DNA of 64,000 bases from Eledone cirrhosa (GCA_964016885.1 OZ024745.1:125798001-125862000); one strand, 5' to 3'. Shown: positions 760 through 62,057, counted from the first letter of the stretch. Notes: a model not told the origin generated them from the letters alone. Numbers and translations: made by a program.

Positions 760-1605
760 AAAATTCGCAATGCTGGAATTTCAATGTATAGTTGATACTT
801 GACTGTTTTCATGTAACCTGCCTTTAATGTCACCCCACTCCAGTCTAATATAGCCTACTGTGTTCCAATATCTGATCCCGAAGGAATATATGCCATTGCA
901 TAAGTGAGGTCAGACAGGAGAATTATATACAATATGTTTCATGGTTCTTTTCCTGCCCACGTATACACAATAACGCCATTGTCCACTCAGCACATATATA
1001 CTTACACACATTCATAGATACCCAAGAAATAATTGTAAGTTATAATAATATGGTTATGGTTTTAATTAGAATGGCGATATAGTAGAAGAATCGATAGAAA
1101 GCCGGACAAAATATGTTGTGGTATTTGGTTACGTCCGTTATGTTCTGAGTTTAAAACACACCCTGCTTAACTTTGCATTTCGTCTATTCGAGACTGACAA
1201 ATTTGATACTAGTTAAATATATGTATAAACCCATAACTCCGGGTGGATTCATATGAATTTTAAACCAAGTTGAATCCGTCACTCTCAAGGTCAGAACATA
1301 GCTGATTTAGTCAAGAGAAAGTGGGGGTGAGAGAGAGGAAATGCAAAAGTTGCATAAAGGAAGAAATGACCTACTACTTGTCTGGCACTTTCTTTTTATC
1401 GACATCGAATGATAAAAGGCATTGTTGATTAGTCGGAATTTGAAATCTGAGCTCAGAAAGCGGGTATGAATACCTCAATATATTCTATCTGACGTTCTAA
1501 CGATTCTAACGATTCACCTATTATTAGAGTTAAATGTATTGACACCAACACTATTTAAAAGTTAAAAATCTTTAAATCAATATAATCATTATTGTAGTTG
1601 TTCGA

Positions 1606-1793
1606 TTGGCTGTGGATTGGCAGTGTCGGTAGAGCGTCAGACACCATGCTTTGCAGCACAGAGTTATGGCCCTTTATGTTCTGAGTTCAAATCTCGCTGA
1701 CGTTACCTTTGTCTTTCATCCTTACGGGGTCGATAAAATAAAGCACCAATAACGCACTGGAGTAATTGCTGGCCTTGTGCCAAAAGTAGAAAC
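1606..1793 (+). mobile_element. tRNA-derived SINE (octopus OK-like, by recollection), short form
   Basis: A box TGGCAGTGTCGG, B box GAGTTCAAATC, core CTTTCATCCTTACGGGGTCGATAAAATAAAG, tail GGCCTTGTGCCAAAAGTAGAAAC. Imperfect TSD 1588-1605 / 1794-1812. Confidence 0.9.
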
Positions 1794-2231
1794 ATTCATT
1801 GTAGATGTTCGAAAGGATAAAATGTATTTTAAAAACTTAATCAGGAAAGACAAAGAAGTTCTCATGACTTTTCGAGGGAAACCTTGAACCCACTGAACAA
1901 CTACAATTCATTGCCTCCAGGAAAAATATAGATTGGAAGAATAAGTATATGCGGTATGGTCCAAATACCTGGAAATTAACATACCCCTCTAAAGTCAACA
2001 ACGTGCATGGTAGTAGAGGAAAACGTGAGGTCGATTTAAGTTTTTACTCTTCTGTGGCCAAATAAGTGTCTTGATTGAGTCGTAAGAACATTTAGGAAGG
2101 TGTTTTGTGTTAATTGGTTCTCTTCTTGGCGCTCTATGTTCAAATCTGAGGTTGACAGAGTACTATTCCAGTCGTAACGTATATACTTTATTTATCTCCC
2201 TCACTTTCTCCCACATTATGAGAAAGAGAGT

Positions 2232-2360
2232 TACCTCCCTGTATGGTCTGAGTTCAAATCCCGCCGAGGTTAACTTTGCCTTTCATCCTTCCGGGGTCGA
2301 TAGAATAAAGTACCAGTAATGCATTGGGTAATTGCTGGCCTTGTGCCAAAAGTAGAAACA
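2232..2360 (+). mobile_element. SINE, 5'-truncated
   Basis: Same family; perfect 17-bp TSD ATTATGAGAAAGAGAGT at 2215-2231 and 2361-2377. Confidence 0.92.
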
Positions 2361-2499
2361 ATTATGAGAAAGAGAGTGGGAAAAGTGATATATATATAAT
2401 CAACACTCTTTCTTATATATATATAACATTAGAATTATATTTCTCGGGCCATTTGCTTGCAAGCAAATCGAATATTATTATTAATGTTTGATATAACCC

Positions 2500-2738
2500 A
2501 CACATACATGTGTATACATGTGTGTGTATATATATATATATATATATATATATGTATATATATATATGTATATATATATATGTATATATATACATATATA
2601 TATATACATATATATATATATATTATATATATATATATAGTAATAAATTTACACTCTCTCTTATATATATATATTATATATTATATATATATATATATAT
2701 ATATATATATATATATATATATATATATATATATATAA
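2500..2738. repeat. Compound (TA)n/(TG)n microsatellite, representative of many (e.g. ~5080-5290, 6000-6360, 7221-7320, 37260-37680, 52420-52685, 57920-58180)
   Basis: Direct reading. Confidence 0.97.
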
Positions 2739-58180: not shown

Positions 58181-58549
58181 TTAGAAAGTGAGGTTTTTTT
58201 GTTTTTTTTTATTTTGTAAAAATGAAAAATAACCGAGGTGTCCTACACGAGTGAAAGTATAAAGAAAAAAAGATGAAATCGAAAATGGAACTGGAGTCTT
58301 ATTTAAAAATATATATATATATTTATTTGGTTCCTTTACTGGTTTCGCAGTTCTTCTGCTTTTCAAAAGTAGAGTTGAGATGGAGGGTCTGTGGTTTTTC
58401 TCATATCTCAGATGTGAGAAAAACCACAGACCCTCCATCTCAACTCTACTTTTGAAAAGCAGAAGAACTGCGAAACCGATAAAGGAACCAAATAAATATA
58501 TATATATTTTTTTAAATAAGACTCCAGTTGCATTTTCGATTTCATCTTT
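58181..58549. mobile_element. Family A fold-back element (centre 58409; hammerheads ~58333-58369 minus and ~58449-58484 plus)
   Basis: Homologous to 35669-36030, flanked by (TA)n. Confidence 0.8.
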
Positions 58550-59129
58550 ATATATATATATATATATATATATATATATATATATACACTTTGTAAACGG
58601 TGTTTACCAACTAGAGTTGTGTAATTCACACTCTAATCAATGAAAGGTCATGCAATTGTATTTAAGAATTCCAAATTCGTTTTTTGTCTAAGTTGATGTA
58701 AACGCGAAGTAAATACTTGCGAAAACTATACGAAGTTCTTCATAGATTCATTTCAATGCGCTGTTATACATATTTCTCCGGGCTCAATGATTATTATGTG
58801 ATCTAATCACCACTCAACCATTGGCTCGAGTTAATCCAAGAGCATTTTTAAAGAAAAAGACAAGCAACGTTTATAGATTATCGATAGGAGGACTGGCATA
58901 CAGCATGTTCATATCTAGCTGGACTTCCGTAGTAAAATTCAATTCCTCCTTAACACTAGTTACCATGAATGGAAGTGGGAGCGAGACGCACACTTAGCCC
59001 CACACCCGGTAAGGTTCATTAAGTGACAAGCCATAAGTATGAAGACAAAGGGGTTTGAAAAGCTTTTATTCTCCTCTTTCCTCTCTATCATCAAGTGGTA
59101 GTGTACACAATTTTATTTTACATTAAAAA

Positions 59130-59395
59130 AAAACATTATATATGACAAAACAAACATTACAAGAAATCTCAGTGTGAGTGTTTCTCAGTGAAATATACAT
59201 ATACACCAGGCCCGAACACAAAGGAACCAAACTCCCACTGCCACTGCCTCTGTCTCTCCCGTCCTCCCTATCTCTCCCTATTATGAGCAAATGGGGGCCC
59301 ACGCACTGGCTGCTTTGTGACCTAGTGGACAGAATAGAGAAGGCGTTTCCCAGGAGGATGGTGATGGAGACGCGCTGGAAAAGCCTCTCCAACTA
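59130..59395 (-). mobile_element. CRE-like LINE extreme 3' fragment
   Basis: ERLFQRVSITILLGNAFSILS followed by a 3' UTR-like stretch. Confidence 0.65.
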
Positions 59396-61075
59396 GTAGT
59401 AGTAACAAGTTTATCATTCCCTACCCACCGAATTCCTCACCCTGCAATCGCTTATTTATTCTATGTTACTTTATTTTAGTTTACTCTATTTTACTCTATT
59501 TATTTGGATTTTACTTACAATTTTAACATAATATCAATTTAATTTAATTTAATTGTGTCTATCTTATACCTTTCGTATCCTATATTAGATATTATATCTT
59601 ACTTTTAAGTATATTATCGGTTGGACATAGTGGTCCCTGGGATGTGTGACAATATCAACAGTATGAAGGTAGACGCTTATATATGTATCTACAGGCAGGG
59701 TTGTGTGTGCACGCTTACACAAGTGTGCACTCTATCTAGTCAGGGCCTGCATCTTGGGAGTTGTGACAAAATACACATGTTTTCGTTGTTGTTTCTTACA
59801 AGTTGTGGGGGACACTTGGACAATCCAAACTTTTCCCAGGACATTCCCCATTATATTGCAAGATTCCACTTTGTAAGCAATTTGCTTATTGAGTACTTGG
59901 AACGCCTCTGTTGTTTTTGGCTATAGTAACCTACCCTATAAAACTGCATAGCAATATTGACTTTATACCCCCATTCACTACCACACATCTCGCAGCGGAG
60001 GATAACGAGGGATGCGTGTTGAAATGGCTATTCCACCTCAAGTGGGCCTCACTCCATTTATCTTTCCATTGGCGCAAACAAACATAAGCCGAGCAATTAC
60101 GTCGCTTAAATTGATTGTCTCTTGTCACCAGCAAAAACAAAATCTGTCTGTGTTCTAATTTCAGAAACTTGTATATTCATGGTAGTCATTTCATTTAATG
60201 GTTTTCAACTGTAAGAAGAAAGGGATTGTATATCATATATTATTAGTGTCTTGATAAAAGATTATTCAGCTTCAAGTGTGTGATACAAGACCTACTGTCA
60301 ACGATCTCTGTTCAGAAAACCTAAAATTTAGGATAGAGTGCAAACTGGTGACTATTCAACAAAAAGGCCACACCTTCTTATGTCGTTTGCTTCTATCACT
60401 ATTTCTCCCATCTCATTTAAACAAACCATCTTTCTCAGTAGTCATCATCTTGTTAAACAGGACGTATTTTGCAATGTTTATCCCGATTTCTTTTCCTTCT
60501 TTATTTAACTATTTGAATAACGTCTGGCTGTATAATTTAGGGAACAGTTCATAAAAAATATTCAATTACTTAAAGTAATATTTTTTCTCGGGAGTTCCCT
60601 TCTACTCAAATTTCTTTAAACACATTCCCATTAGTCTTCTATGTCAAAACAGACTCCTTAGTTGTTGGCAATTTAATAAGAACTTTCTAAATATACAACT
60701 CTGCTAAGATGCATGCATCATGTAATTATTTAGCACAGAAGAGGTACGGTATGAATTCTAAGATATTGAGAATGGGTGTTTTCCAAAGAGATTAAAATGT
60801 TTAAACCCCGCCCAAACGAGACGAGCAAGAAAACGGTTATTTTAAAGTTTGCTTTAAGAAATACCACCTGAACTGTAAATAACGACCAAAAAGGAATCTT
60901 TGTGCGGTCTCTAGGCCGGGTAAAAATAGCAGCAAAATCATCTACAAATCTTTAAATTGAATAATGTACAAAATCATCTACTATCTTTAAATTGAATAAT
61001 GTAGCCCTAGATACAGTGCTTGGTATATAAGGTGAAATAGCGTAGGCTAGAGTACATTTGATTATATGACTTCTC

Positions 61076-61293
61076 AGGTCGATGGATTGGTAGTATCGGT
61101 AGAGGGTCGGACGTCATGCTTTGCAGCATAGAGTTACAGCCCTTTATGATCTGAGTTCAAATCCCGCCAAGGTTAACTTTGCCTTTCATCCTTACGGGGT
61201 CGATAAAATAAAGTAGCAGTCACGCACTGGGGTCGGTTTAATCGACTTTCCCTTCCCTCCAAAATTGCTGGCCTTGTGTCTATATAAGAAACC
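61076..61293 (+). mobile_element. SINE, long form, full length
   Basis: TSD ATTATATGACTTCTC at 61061-61075 / 61294-61308. Confidence 0.93.
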
Positions 61294-62057
61294 ATTATAT
61301 GACTTCTCGGACAGGATGTGTCTGACGGCTAAAAACAACAGCTACGTGACAAATAAGATAGAAATGTTATGGCTGGAATAACTTTAATGAAGACTGACCT
61401 GAGGTAAAACAATATCAACTGCAATGCATAGTATTAGCTCTTCAAAATTCTTTGCACTCTTCTCTCTGTAACAGATTTTTCCATTGCTAAATAAATCTTA
61501 AACAAGGTATATACCGATATATAACATTACTATAAAAAGCAAAACGAAATTTCAAAGTGGACTAATCAAATAATATGATTTATTTCTTAAGAGATATGTA
61601 GTACATTTTCCTGGACATGAATATCGAATTTGTATGTATTAGTTTATATATTACTGTAGGCAATGTAGTAGGGTGTGATGAACAGTGTATGAAATGAATC
61701 TCACAGTAGGTGAGATAAATATCATATCAGCAAGTTGAATCAACTACTTGTGAAGTTTGCTTCCAACAGGGGAGATATATAGAAAGATCGAGAAAATAAG
61801 CAACAATAATTTCTTACCATCTCACTTTTTATTGTTACTAGGTCGATTGATTCTATCACTTATTACACCTAGAACAATAGGTTTAAAACAATGCAGCTAT
61901 AAAATCACCGCGGATATTCTAGATATTTCAAATAACAAGACAGTTAAACTGTTTGAAAGAGCAGCTAAATCTCGATCTAAAGCATATTCTACTATTTAGA
62001 AAACAAAGAAAGGTCACATTAAACATTGAAGTCCTGGATATGCAAAAAGGACAATAG

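Follow-up and report, generated by a model that had tools for sequence, protein, structure and literature searches.

Mammalian L1 and Alu elements insert at TT|AAAA sites (the L1 cut site is 5'-TTTT|A) through an L1-group ORF2p. Their target-site duplications (TSDs) measure about 8-19 bp, the nick follows T-rich sequence, and the tail pairs with the primer. APE-type elements of the L1/Tx1 group occupy microsatellites, including Kibi in (TC)n, Koshi in (TTC)n and crocodilian Tx1 families in (TTCC)n/(TTTC)n, for which the available parts of the descriptions mention no SINE partner. According to the accessible part of PMC4494074, Tx1 families target microsatellites and mobilize SINEU; the target preference of crocodilian SINEU is ascribed to its partner Tx1-Mar, tandem SINEU copies sandwich a TSD, which is interpreted as sequential insertion, and no LINE with a common 3' end was found for SINEU-1. 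Tx1 microsatellite targeting and Tx1-driven SINEs are already known. In RTE-related SINEs, one base at the TSD start matches the 3' microsatellite-like tail, a T stretch lies one helical turn upstream, and the choice between endonuclease preference and RNA-tail priming is left open (PMC6007223, accessible part). Few SINEs have a sharp target motif. Partner LINEs are unidentified for many mollusc SINEs, and a survey of bivalve SINE partners contains 0 occurrences of Tx1. The octopus tRNA-CORE / tRNA-Deu SINEs OK/OR1/OR2 are comparable by description: they are tRNA-like, very abundant, and share their genome with many L1-Tx1 and Dong-R4 elements.

We analyzed one window, a stretch of 64,000 nucleotides from Eledone cirrhosa, and found a repeat resembling a tRNA-like SINE, with 27 3' ends (Table 1). 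SINEs are 100-600 bp long, numerous, dispersed and without coding capacity, and the repeat has all these features; its copies are 185-215 bp long, show pairwise identity of 83-97%, and form a short type (~185 bp, the commoner in the window) and a long type (~215 bp). There are 15 TSDs of variable length (8-19 bp), and 5' truncation is seen in TSD-bearing copies at 2227 and 35422. Inspection by eye against a consensus points to a B-box, an A-box-like motif and a closing GGCGG/CCGCC pair in the head; the two box motifs are present in the copy at 43543-43729, which has 5 additional bases at its 5' junction. No tRNA match was obtained for the window copies with ARAGORN or Rfam. No poly(A) was found at the 3' ends of the motif matches in the window, in line with the original prediction. 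The SINE is probably already named in Repbase or Dfam under some label; a literature text search with its motif returned unrelated papers only, and a motif scan of metagenome, viral and prokaryote collections returned 0 loci.

Table 1 Features of the SINE family and its candidate partners in the window.
Feature	Position	Strand	Details
SINE 1608-1794 with TSDs	1588..1812	+	imperfect 18-bp TSD, ATTAT start
5'-truncated SINE	2215..2377	+	exact 17-bp TSD 2215-2231/2361-2377, ATTAT start
R4/Dong-like 3' fragment 4197-4563 (RT, restriction-like endonuclease)	4155..4608	+	between (AAT)14 and (AAT)15 in its own sense
SINE 7367-7549 with TSDs	7356..7560	+	exact 11-bp TSD 7356-7366/7550-7560
Long-type SINE	8561..8748	-	ATTAT next, no callable TSD
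(ATT)6 run after LINE 3' end	17236..17255	-	tail and/or TSD
LINE 3'-terminal ~40 nt resembling SINE tail	17256..17295	-	in register before ATTATT; contains AATAAA
Intact two-ORF non-LTR retrotransposon, apparent L1/Tx1 type	17256..23080	-	candidate SINE partner lineage; 5' end estimated from ATT-run edge
ORF2, about 1139 aa	17510..20929	-	APE endonuclease, reverse transcriptase, zf-RVT; no stop or frameshift
ORF1, 636 aa from ATG	20959..22869	-	CX2CX4HX4C knuckle
(ATT)6 run before LINE 5' end	23081..23098	-	TSD copy; length ambiguous inside microsatellite
Short-type full-length SINE	23164..23346	-	19-bp TSD 23346-23364/23145-23163
Four-copy SINE array	25074..25830	-	three near-identical 11-mers starting ATTAT between copies
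Short-type SINE	25860..26031	+	ATTAT next, no callable TSD
SINE 32956-33119 with TSDs	32940..33134	+	exact 15-bp TSD 32940-32954/33120-33134
SINE dimer, short and long type	33657..34060	-	one 17-bp TSD 34044-34060/33657-33673, ATTTA start
5'-truncated SINE	35299..35438	-	in (ATT)6 run; exact 17-bp TSD (35422-35438)
Truncated SINE	38749..38847	-	no ATTAT after end, no TSD
Truncated SINE	41803..41917	-	ATTAT next, no callable TSD
SINE with internal duplication and inversion	43129..43362	-	ATTAT both sides, no longer matching
Short-type full-length SINE 43543-43729	43523..43744	+	exact 15-bp TSD 43523-43537/43730-43744
Long-type SINE	46407..46608	+	6-bp ATTATT both sides, below TSD threshold
Head-to-tail four-copy SINE array	47481..48285	-	TSDs include 47866-47873, 48278-48285
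SINE	53250..53429	-	ATTAT next, no TSD
Long-type SINE	55052..55237	-	ATTAT both sides; possible TSD split by 5-bp indel, uncounted
Old diverged SINE pair	56472..56951	-	63-72% to reference copies; one target in three copies; TSD at 56933-56951
Long-type full-length SINE 61076-61293	61061..61308	+	exact 15-bp TSD 61061-61075/61294-61308

The 27 ends were kept from 37 motif matches; the 10 left out are the end of the LINE at 17256, four chance-like matches and five old diverged ends, four of which lack ATTAT in register. ATTAT stands directly 3' of the SINE at 22 of the 27 ends, and a callable TSD (score threshold 8 or more) is absent at 12. The original prediction stated that the TSDs start with ATTAT, and this holds for 12 of the 15 called, with ATT opening 14. 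The strings it quoted are all present; the TSDs at 2215, 7356, 32940, 43523 and 61061 are exact, and the one at 1588 is imperfect, its 3' copy having one extra base and one mismatch (start set by hand; the script start is 1591). The length range of 11-18 bp had been drawn too narrowly, and the TSDs at 23346-23364, 35422-35438, 47866-47873, 48278-48285 and 56933-56951, together with three further ones inside arrays, had been overlooked. The exception noted as ATTTAG near 33670 is real, with its TSD surrounding the dimer, and is one of three (ATTTA, ATTAA and ATCAT).

In a blind TSD test, the first five bases were ignored and an exact core of at least 7 nt was required beyond them. Nine of 27 copies were callable, versus 20 of 702 swapped-flank pairs, and the upstream TSD copy begins with ATTAT in eight of the nine and with ATCAT in the ninth. 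The binomial p is 1e-19 against the ATTAT background of 0.0032 per position and 4e-13 against all-A/T 5-mers (0.0217); when two array-linked sites are removed, the count is 6/7 (p 7e-10). Base composition fails to explain the ATTAT preference within the window. ATTAT could still be the SINE's own last bases, with the upstream match arising by chance, as the A+T content of the window is 64% and ATTAT occurs at 22/27 ends regardless of TSD. This reading is contradicted within the window by the blind test and by the ATTTA and ATTAA sites, where the 3' junction matches the target rather than a fixed tail, and we give it practically no chance. At 47494, and possibly at 56724, the 3' side alone has an extra ATT unit, which points to a short ATT tail on the SINE.

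The original prediction did not mention an intact LINE at 17256-~23080 on the minus strand, a likely cause of the preference. Its ORF2 contains the Pfam domains PF03372, PF00078 and PF13966, and its best PDB match is human L1 ORF2p (E 4e-57; R2, E 5e-22). An N-terminal APE, a reverse transcriptase closest to L1 and a C-terminal Cys-rich domain are all present, as in the L1 group. A CCHC zinc knuckle in ORF1 is typical of the Tx1 clade, and the CX2CX4HX4C motif in ORF1 is of this kind; a Pfam search of ORF1 gave no match, and its nearest Atlas clusters are CCHC/RRM-type proteins, with CCHC clusters at 0.90-0.93. Judged from these sequence features, the LINE appears to be of L1/Tx1 type, with Tx1 as the candidate clade label. 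The short-type SINE at 23164..23346 shares with it an ATT/GTT microsatellite and the orientation. Four of 24 listed read runs were compared with 16900-23950 outside the simple repeat at the LINE 3' junction; among these, X20 contributed little. The LINE is multi-copy in reads from two organism labels, with ORF2 depth above ORF1 depth in X16 and X24, and coverage of its 3' UTR extends at least to within 47 nt of the end. Among the 15 read joints listed (another 2083 are unlisted), none skips the SINE or the LINE to give an empty site in 16900-23950. No relatives of ORF2 were found in viral contigs. A metagenome search with ORF2 yielded 80 loci, all distant (best segments 22-51%); at the 25 3' ends inspected there is neither an ATT tail nor a SINE-like end, and poly(A) closes several of them, so these loci are uninformative on the target.

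The last ~24-40 nt of the LINE resemble the SINE tail (14.0-17.8 bits, chance 2-4e-6 per position), with a modest identity of about 65-70% over 40 nt; we note that this end was first located by the SINE tail motif itself. A pooled profile of 24 columns from 24 SINE tails, ATTAT excluded, scores 14.0 bits there (5 null peaks in 1.28 million positions), and the long-type and short-type profiles score 17.8 bits (2 null peaks in 1.28 million) and 6.2 bits (88 in 1.28 million), respectively. All tail-profile peaks above the LINE end are SINE or SINE-like ends. In shuffle tests against the LINE, five of seven long-type tails give p of 0.001-0.04 and the other two 0.14; two short-type tails give 0.12 and 0.50. 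No shared 3' stem-loop and no common or stable fold was found in five tails (z 0.4 to -0.94). The match might instead be a decayed SINE end at the spot where the LINE inserted, leaving the target preference real: old SINE-like ends score 11.6-19.7 bits, which brackets 14.0, and about 0.5 chance peaks at 14.0 bits are expected per window. However, the match stops exactly at an ATT run mirrored at the LINE 5' end, it carries AATAAA, and multi-copy depth extends to 47 nt from it, and we consider a decayed end improbable.

SINE and LINE show the same signature and the same polarity in (ATT)n, with an ATT start in 14/15 SINE TSDs and at one LINE copy. We therefore favor, with confidence somewhat above even, the joint reading that the repeat is a tRNA-like SINE and that it is copied through the ORF2p of an (ATT)n-inserting L1/Tx1-type lineage; the LINE at 17256-~23080 would belong to this lineage or be its close sister, and the partnership is read from a single LINE copy. 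The complete LINE in an ATT repeat probably belongs to the group that supplies the site-choosing enzyme. Compared with SINEU and Tx1-Mar, which have an snRNA head and a Mariner target in the accessible part of PMC4494074, the repeat here is distinguished by its tRNA-like head and by its target, a 5-bp motif of the ATT repeat, and it may share its tail with a LINE. It differs from Kibi, Koshi and the crocodilian Tx1 families in its (ATT)n target. A literature search found neither an (ATT)n/ATTAT target nor a shared SINE-LINE tail of this kind, the target list of PMC4494074 being covered in part.

An R4/Dong element was our initial idea for the partner, and it was dropped on polarity and 3' end. 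TAA microsatellites are a known target of Dong in silkworm, mosquito and a snail (PMC3812793, accessible part), the same microsatellite class as here, no recently active LINE class of O. vulgaris is larger than Dong-R4 in the available part of PMC13282606, and the R4/Dong-like fragment in the window sits in an ATT/AAT microsatellite. Dong has a restriction-like endonuclease, however, and the fragment has (AAT)n at both ends in its own sense, the reverse of the polarity of the SINE's ATTAT; its 3' UTR shows no likeness to the SINE tail and no tail-profile peak. A second R4-like fragment ends in (CATA)n, and neither of the two in the window combines the polarity and 3' end of the SINE. Because of the opposite polarity and different 3' end, Dong is argued against, and we regard it as a very improbable partner. 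The window contains six (ATT)4+ runs: two border the LINE and two the R4-like fragment, one served as a SINE target and one is unassigned.

Under the Tx1-type reading, the SINE would be amplified by target-primed reverse transcription. ORF2p would bind the shared 3' ~25-40 nt of the RNA, and its APE endonuclease would nick at 5'-ATAAT|R on the bottom strand; the ATAAT-3'OH released there would pair with a short AUU(AU) tail and prime the cDNA, and the top strand would be cut 8-19 bp downstream. Because one and a half ATT units would suffice, the SINE can spread outside microsatellites. The TSDs imply nicking at, or priming from, 5'-ATAAT on the bottom strand, as the original prediction proposed without naming the enzyme, and its two options, enzyme choice and tail priming, are both compatible with the TSDs of the window. 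Tail priming alone would mean that the SINE RNA ends in (AUU)n, that a loosely specific endonuclease of an RTE, CR1 or L2 LINE nicks widely, and that only ATAAT-3'OH nicks prime, the likeness to the Tx1-type end being chance or old shared origin. Such pairing is proposed for CR1, L2 and RTE, and in RTE-related elements the start of the TSD agrees with the 3' microsatellite tail (PMC6007223, accessible part), although one base is involved there versus five here; T at +6 in 7/12 sites, the extra ATT units and the weak match of short-type tails to the LINE also fit. On the other hand, no fixed T stretch is seen 10 nt upstream of the SINE sites (T in 7/12 at -10, mixed elsewhere), and the end of a zinc-finger LINE fragment at 23293-23841 is not SINE-like. 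The base at -1 of ATTAT is A in 0/12 solo sites (11 are pyrimidines), versus 31% for ATTAT elsewhere; this bias (n=12, p 0.011) is a post hoc pick from 27 inspected columns, and -1 is A in 2/3 array-internal junctions. This base sits outside the primer and therefore is not selectable by tail pairing. Tail priming alone is, in our view, rather unlikely.

Since the base before ATTAT is never A in the solo sites, the cut would be at a T|purine step, much like L1. The original prediction set the site apart from that of mammalian L1; the motif does differ, but the candidate enzyme is itself L1-group. L1-group ORF2p, TSDs of about 8-19 bp, T-rich pre-nick bases and tail-primer pairing would be common to both systems, with AAAA and poly(A) there versus ATTAT and an AUU tail here, where a specific 3' sequence is apparently shared. 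A broader scenario, which we offer tentatively and hold at less than even, is that a Tx1-type LINE with a microsatellite target drove a main SINE expansion, and that its L1-like endonuclease exchanged TTTT|A for ATAAT|R but still cuts at T|purine. The SINE would have taken the last ~30 nt of the LINE plus the AUU tail, would need a 5-bp target that it rebuilds at both ends, and so would grow its own arrays; R4/Dong would enter the ATT/AAT microsatellite on the other strand, a division of one target by polarity between two unrelated endonucleases. If the pairing is true, the engine of a very abundant SINE is named, (ATT)n joins the Tx1 target list, and thousands of insertions offer a natural system for separating endonuclease choice from RNA-tail priming. 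A 5-bp preference in an intact ORF2p lends itself to direct testing.

Each insertion would duplicate its target, and reuse of the duplicate would give head-to-tail arrays. In the array at 47481..48285, copies are 87-92% alike, not more than dispersed pairs, and tandem duplication as its origin is disfavored by copy divergence and differing spacers. Unequal crossing-over between TSDs, a proposal made for bivalve SINE arrays, may form the others. In the array at 25074..25830, 110 bp of additional sequence precede the third copy, and the 11-mer at 25250-25260, previously taken as a plain TSD, has its match in the flank at 25487-25497, which lies inside the array and ~110 bp ahead of where that copy begins. 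The dimer at 33657..34060 is inserted in the tail of an older SINE copy on the opposite strand.

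The SINE of the window occurs as two subtypes of ~185 bp and ~215 bp, which have the head, the body and the last 24 nt in common. A fuzzy search for SINE ends gave 37 matches, and the 27 located on alignable copies were analyzed; the ten left out are the end of a LINE, four chance-like matches, and five old diverged ends, four of which lack ATTAT in register. ATTAT directly follows the SINE end in 22 of the 27 copies. Because these bases could be the element's own tail, target-site duplications (TSDs) were called without the first five bases. An exact core of at least 7 nt was then found in the upstream flank of nine of the 27 copies, compared with 20 of 702 swapped control pairs, and in that flank ATTAT precedes eight of the nine cores. 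The window is 64% A+T with plentiful simple repeats. Set against the frequency of ATTAT over all positions (0.32%), eight of nine gives p = 1e-19; set against its share among all-A/T 5-mers (2.2%), p = 4e-13. When mismatches were tolerated, 15 SINE TSDs reached a score of 8, of 30 pairings tried, with observed lengths of 8-19 bp (assigned manually for the TSD start at 1588 and the TSD length at 47873); twelve start with ATTAT, and the remaining three with ATTTA, ATTAA, and ATCAT. No TSD with a score of at least 8 was found at 12 of the 27 ends. The ATTAT target is a solid observation inside the window, as the original prediction had it, and the five exact TSDs quoted there are right, as is the statement that poly(A) is lacking, with none after any of the 27 ends. 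The TSD at 1588, also listed there, is imperfect rather than an exact match, and the site at 25250 is an array junction rather than a plain TSD.

A B-box and an A-box-like motif lie in the SINE head, which GGCGG/CCGCC pairing can close, as judged by eye against the consensus; ARAGORN and Rfam gave no match in the SINE. Reads of other sequencing runs contain both subtypes in abundance (loose ends at 23196). The repeat content suggests an octopus host, in agreement with the abundant tRNA SINEs, L1-Tx1, and Dong-R4 elements reported for octopus genomes (PMC13282606; PMC8967140). The family probably carries a database name already. About 15 short matches to the SINE's head and body (e.g. 1128, 9502, 15148, 29766, 34149, and 63414) are relatives that are older and diverged, which shows the family to be long-lived.

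SINE arrays at 25.1-25.8, 47.5-48.3, and 56.5-56.9 kb have one target repeated between copies. Similarity among the four copies at 47.5-48.3 kb is 87-92% and does not exceed that of dispersed copies, which fits serial insertion, in which each SINE would land in a target duplicated by an earlier insertion. A SINE dimer at 33.7-34.0 kb (33657-34068) is enclosed by a single TSD and sits in the tail of an older SINE-family copy of reverse-complement orientation. At 25378-25486 (minus strand), 110 extra bp stand in front of a truncated SINE. They hold a 14-nt unit, repeated about six times, whose last bases are the junction bases of the SINE itself; such a stretch could have arisen through slippage or a template switch in the course of reverse transcription. 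Another copy, at 43129-43362 (minus strand), has an internal duplication, together with a short inverted stretch around the GTACCAGT hairpin.

On the minus strand, the SINE end-motif search also found position 17258, where an intact LINE with two ORFs has its 3′ end. The closest PDB match of its ORF2 is human L1 ORF2p (E 4e-57; R2 5e-22), and its endonuclease motifs align with those of L1; ORF1 has no Pfam match. We observed (ATT)6 on either side of the LINE, in the LINE's own sense, and one SINE copy lies 65 bp upstream of the 5′ ATT run, in the same microsatellite and the same orientation. The nearest proteins are one of 78% identity (P0001) and nine of 41-44%. Related records in the sequencing runs X16, X24, and X2 together cover the whole LINE. 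In X16 and X24, depth is greater over ORF2 than over ORF1, the pattern expected of 5′-truncated copies. X16 contigs are identical to ORF1 across 201-280 nt at a depth of ~1,900-2,000, and X24 has 3,943 reads at 17303, 47 nt from the LINE end; these depths are not equal to copy numbers, as RAD depth varies with cut sites. Read matching skipped the simple repeat at the 3′ junction, and the ends are visible in one LINE copy only.

Features of the window, with positions and strands
Feature	Position	Strand	Remarks
R4/Dong-like 3′ fragment	4197-4563 (within 4155-4608)	+	between (AAT)14 and (AAT)15, own sense
Sequence just past LINE 3′ flank	16900-17135		another multi-copy sequence, high depth in three runs
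LINE	17256-23080	-	intact, apparently young
ORF2 of LINE	20929-17510	-	APE endonuclease, RT, zf-RVT
ORF1 of LINE	22869-20959	-	CCHC knuckle
Zinc-finger fragment	~23430-23841	-	three C2H2 zinc fingers, multi-copy in X16 and X24
18-bp unit array	31585-32304		~40 copies
Degenerate CAC/CAT-rich repeat	45497-46383		~890 bp
Second R4-like C-terminal fragment	~51870-52130	-	more distant, assigned by motif, between (TACA/CATA)n repeats

With ATTAT excluded, a profile built from 24 SINE tails gives 14.0 bits at the LINE end, in register, against 5 null peaks in 1.28 million Markov positions. A profile of the long type reaches 17.8 bits there (2 null peaks in 1.28 million) and one of the short type only 6.2 bits (88 in 1.28 million). 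When the last 80 nt were aligned pairwise with the LINE, five of seven long-type tails (p 0.001-0.04) and neither of two short-type tails beat dinucleotide shuffles. By chance alone, the window should contain about 0.5 peaks of 14 bits, and we estimate a probability of ~1e-4 that one would coincide with the end of the LINE, in the correct strand and ahead of the ATT run, allowing 20 positions. Across 40 nt the SINE tail and the LINE end are ~65-70% alike. At that level of likeness, and given the existence of the relative P0001, a sister family of the LINE may be the true donor; no hairpin shared among the tails was found. On balance, we lean towards this L1/Tx1-type lineage as the SINE's mobilizing partner.

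The fragment at 4197-4563, which we take to be R4/Dong-like from its motifs, serves as an internal control. Its relatives in the protein collection are up to 75% identical, and full-length ones have an RT followed by an R2-like nuclease region at the end (weak, E 0.13). Its (AAT)n sense is the strand opposite to that of the SINE and the LINE, and this opposite polarity argues against Dong elements as the partner; its 3′ UTR is unrelated to the SINE tail. Dong elements are described as a TAA-targeting family (PMC3812793). The second R4-like fragment was unmatched by relatives of the first in tblastn, and suggests a further microsatellite-targeting family.

Alongside the observed target start, TSD range, polarity, and LINE anatomy and site, established TPRT chemistry suggests that a bottom-strand nick at 5′-ATAAT/ would leave a primer complementary to AUUAU. 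The original prediction offered nicking or tail priming at ATAAT. The base just before ATTAT (-1) is C or T at 11 of 12 solo sites and A at none, compared with A at 31% of 386 other ATTAT sites (p 0.011-0.017, post hoc). The L1 endonuclease cuts at a T/purine step. Since base -1 lies outside the primer, the bias points to an endonuclease making a similar T/purine cut. A short AUU tail able to pair is suggested by the additional ATT that 47494, and possibly 56724, carries on the 3′ side only. Endonuclease choice and tail pairing probably both act; for RTE elements, the choice between them is described as likewise undecided (PMC6007223).

A Tx1 element that prefers a particular target, with a SINE depending on it, is an arrangement of a known kind. 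Published targets of Tx1 families are (TC)n, (TTC)n, (TTCC)n, and (TTTC)n, and the full published list may include ATT; Tx1-Mar is held to mobilize SINEU, which, like the window SINE, makes tandems around a TSD, and no LINE carrying the SINEU-1 end was found there (PMC4494074). Bivalve SINEs are reported to use CR1, CR1-Zenon, L2, and Nimb and to make TSD-(SINE-TSD)n arrays (PMC11481361, PMC4824008, PMC4758252). Octopus RTE and Dong elements are described, with Tx1 unmentioned in the sections consulted (PMC9115989). Neither an ATT-targeting Tx1 nor the target of the window SINE appeared in the titles and abstracts searched (Repbase, Dfam, SINEBase, and subscription papers lay outside this scope), so the novelty of the ATT target and of SINE targeting is provisional. 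What appears new here is ATT as a target, the tail that the SINE and the LINE may share, and two clades occupying a single microsatellite from opposite strands.

The zinc-finger fragment is possibly the C-terminal part of a LINE of RTE type; a C2H2 finger has been described in an octopus RTE (PMC9115989).
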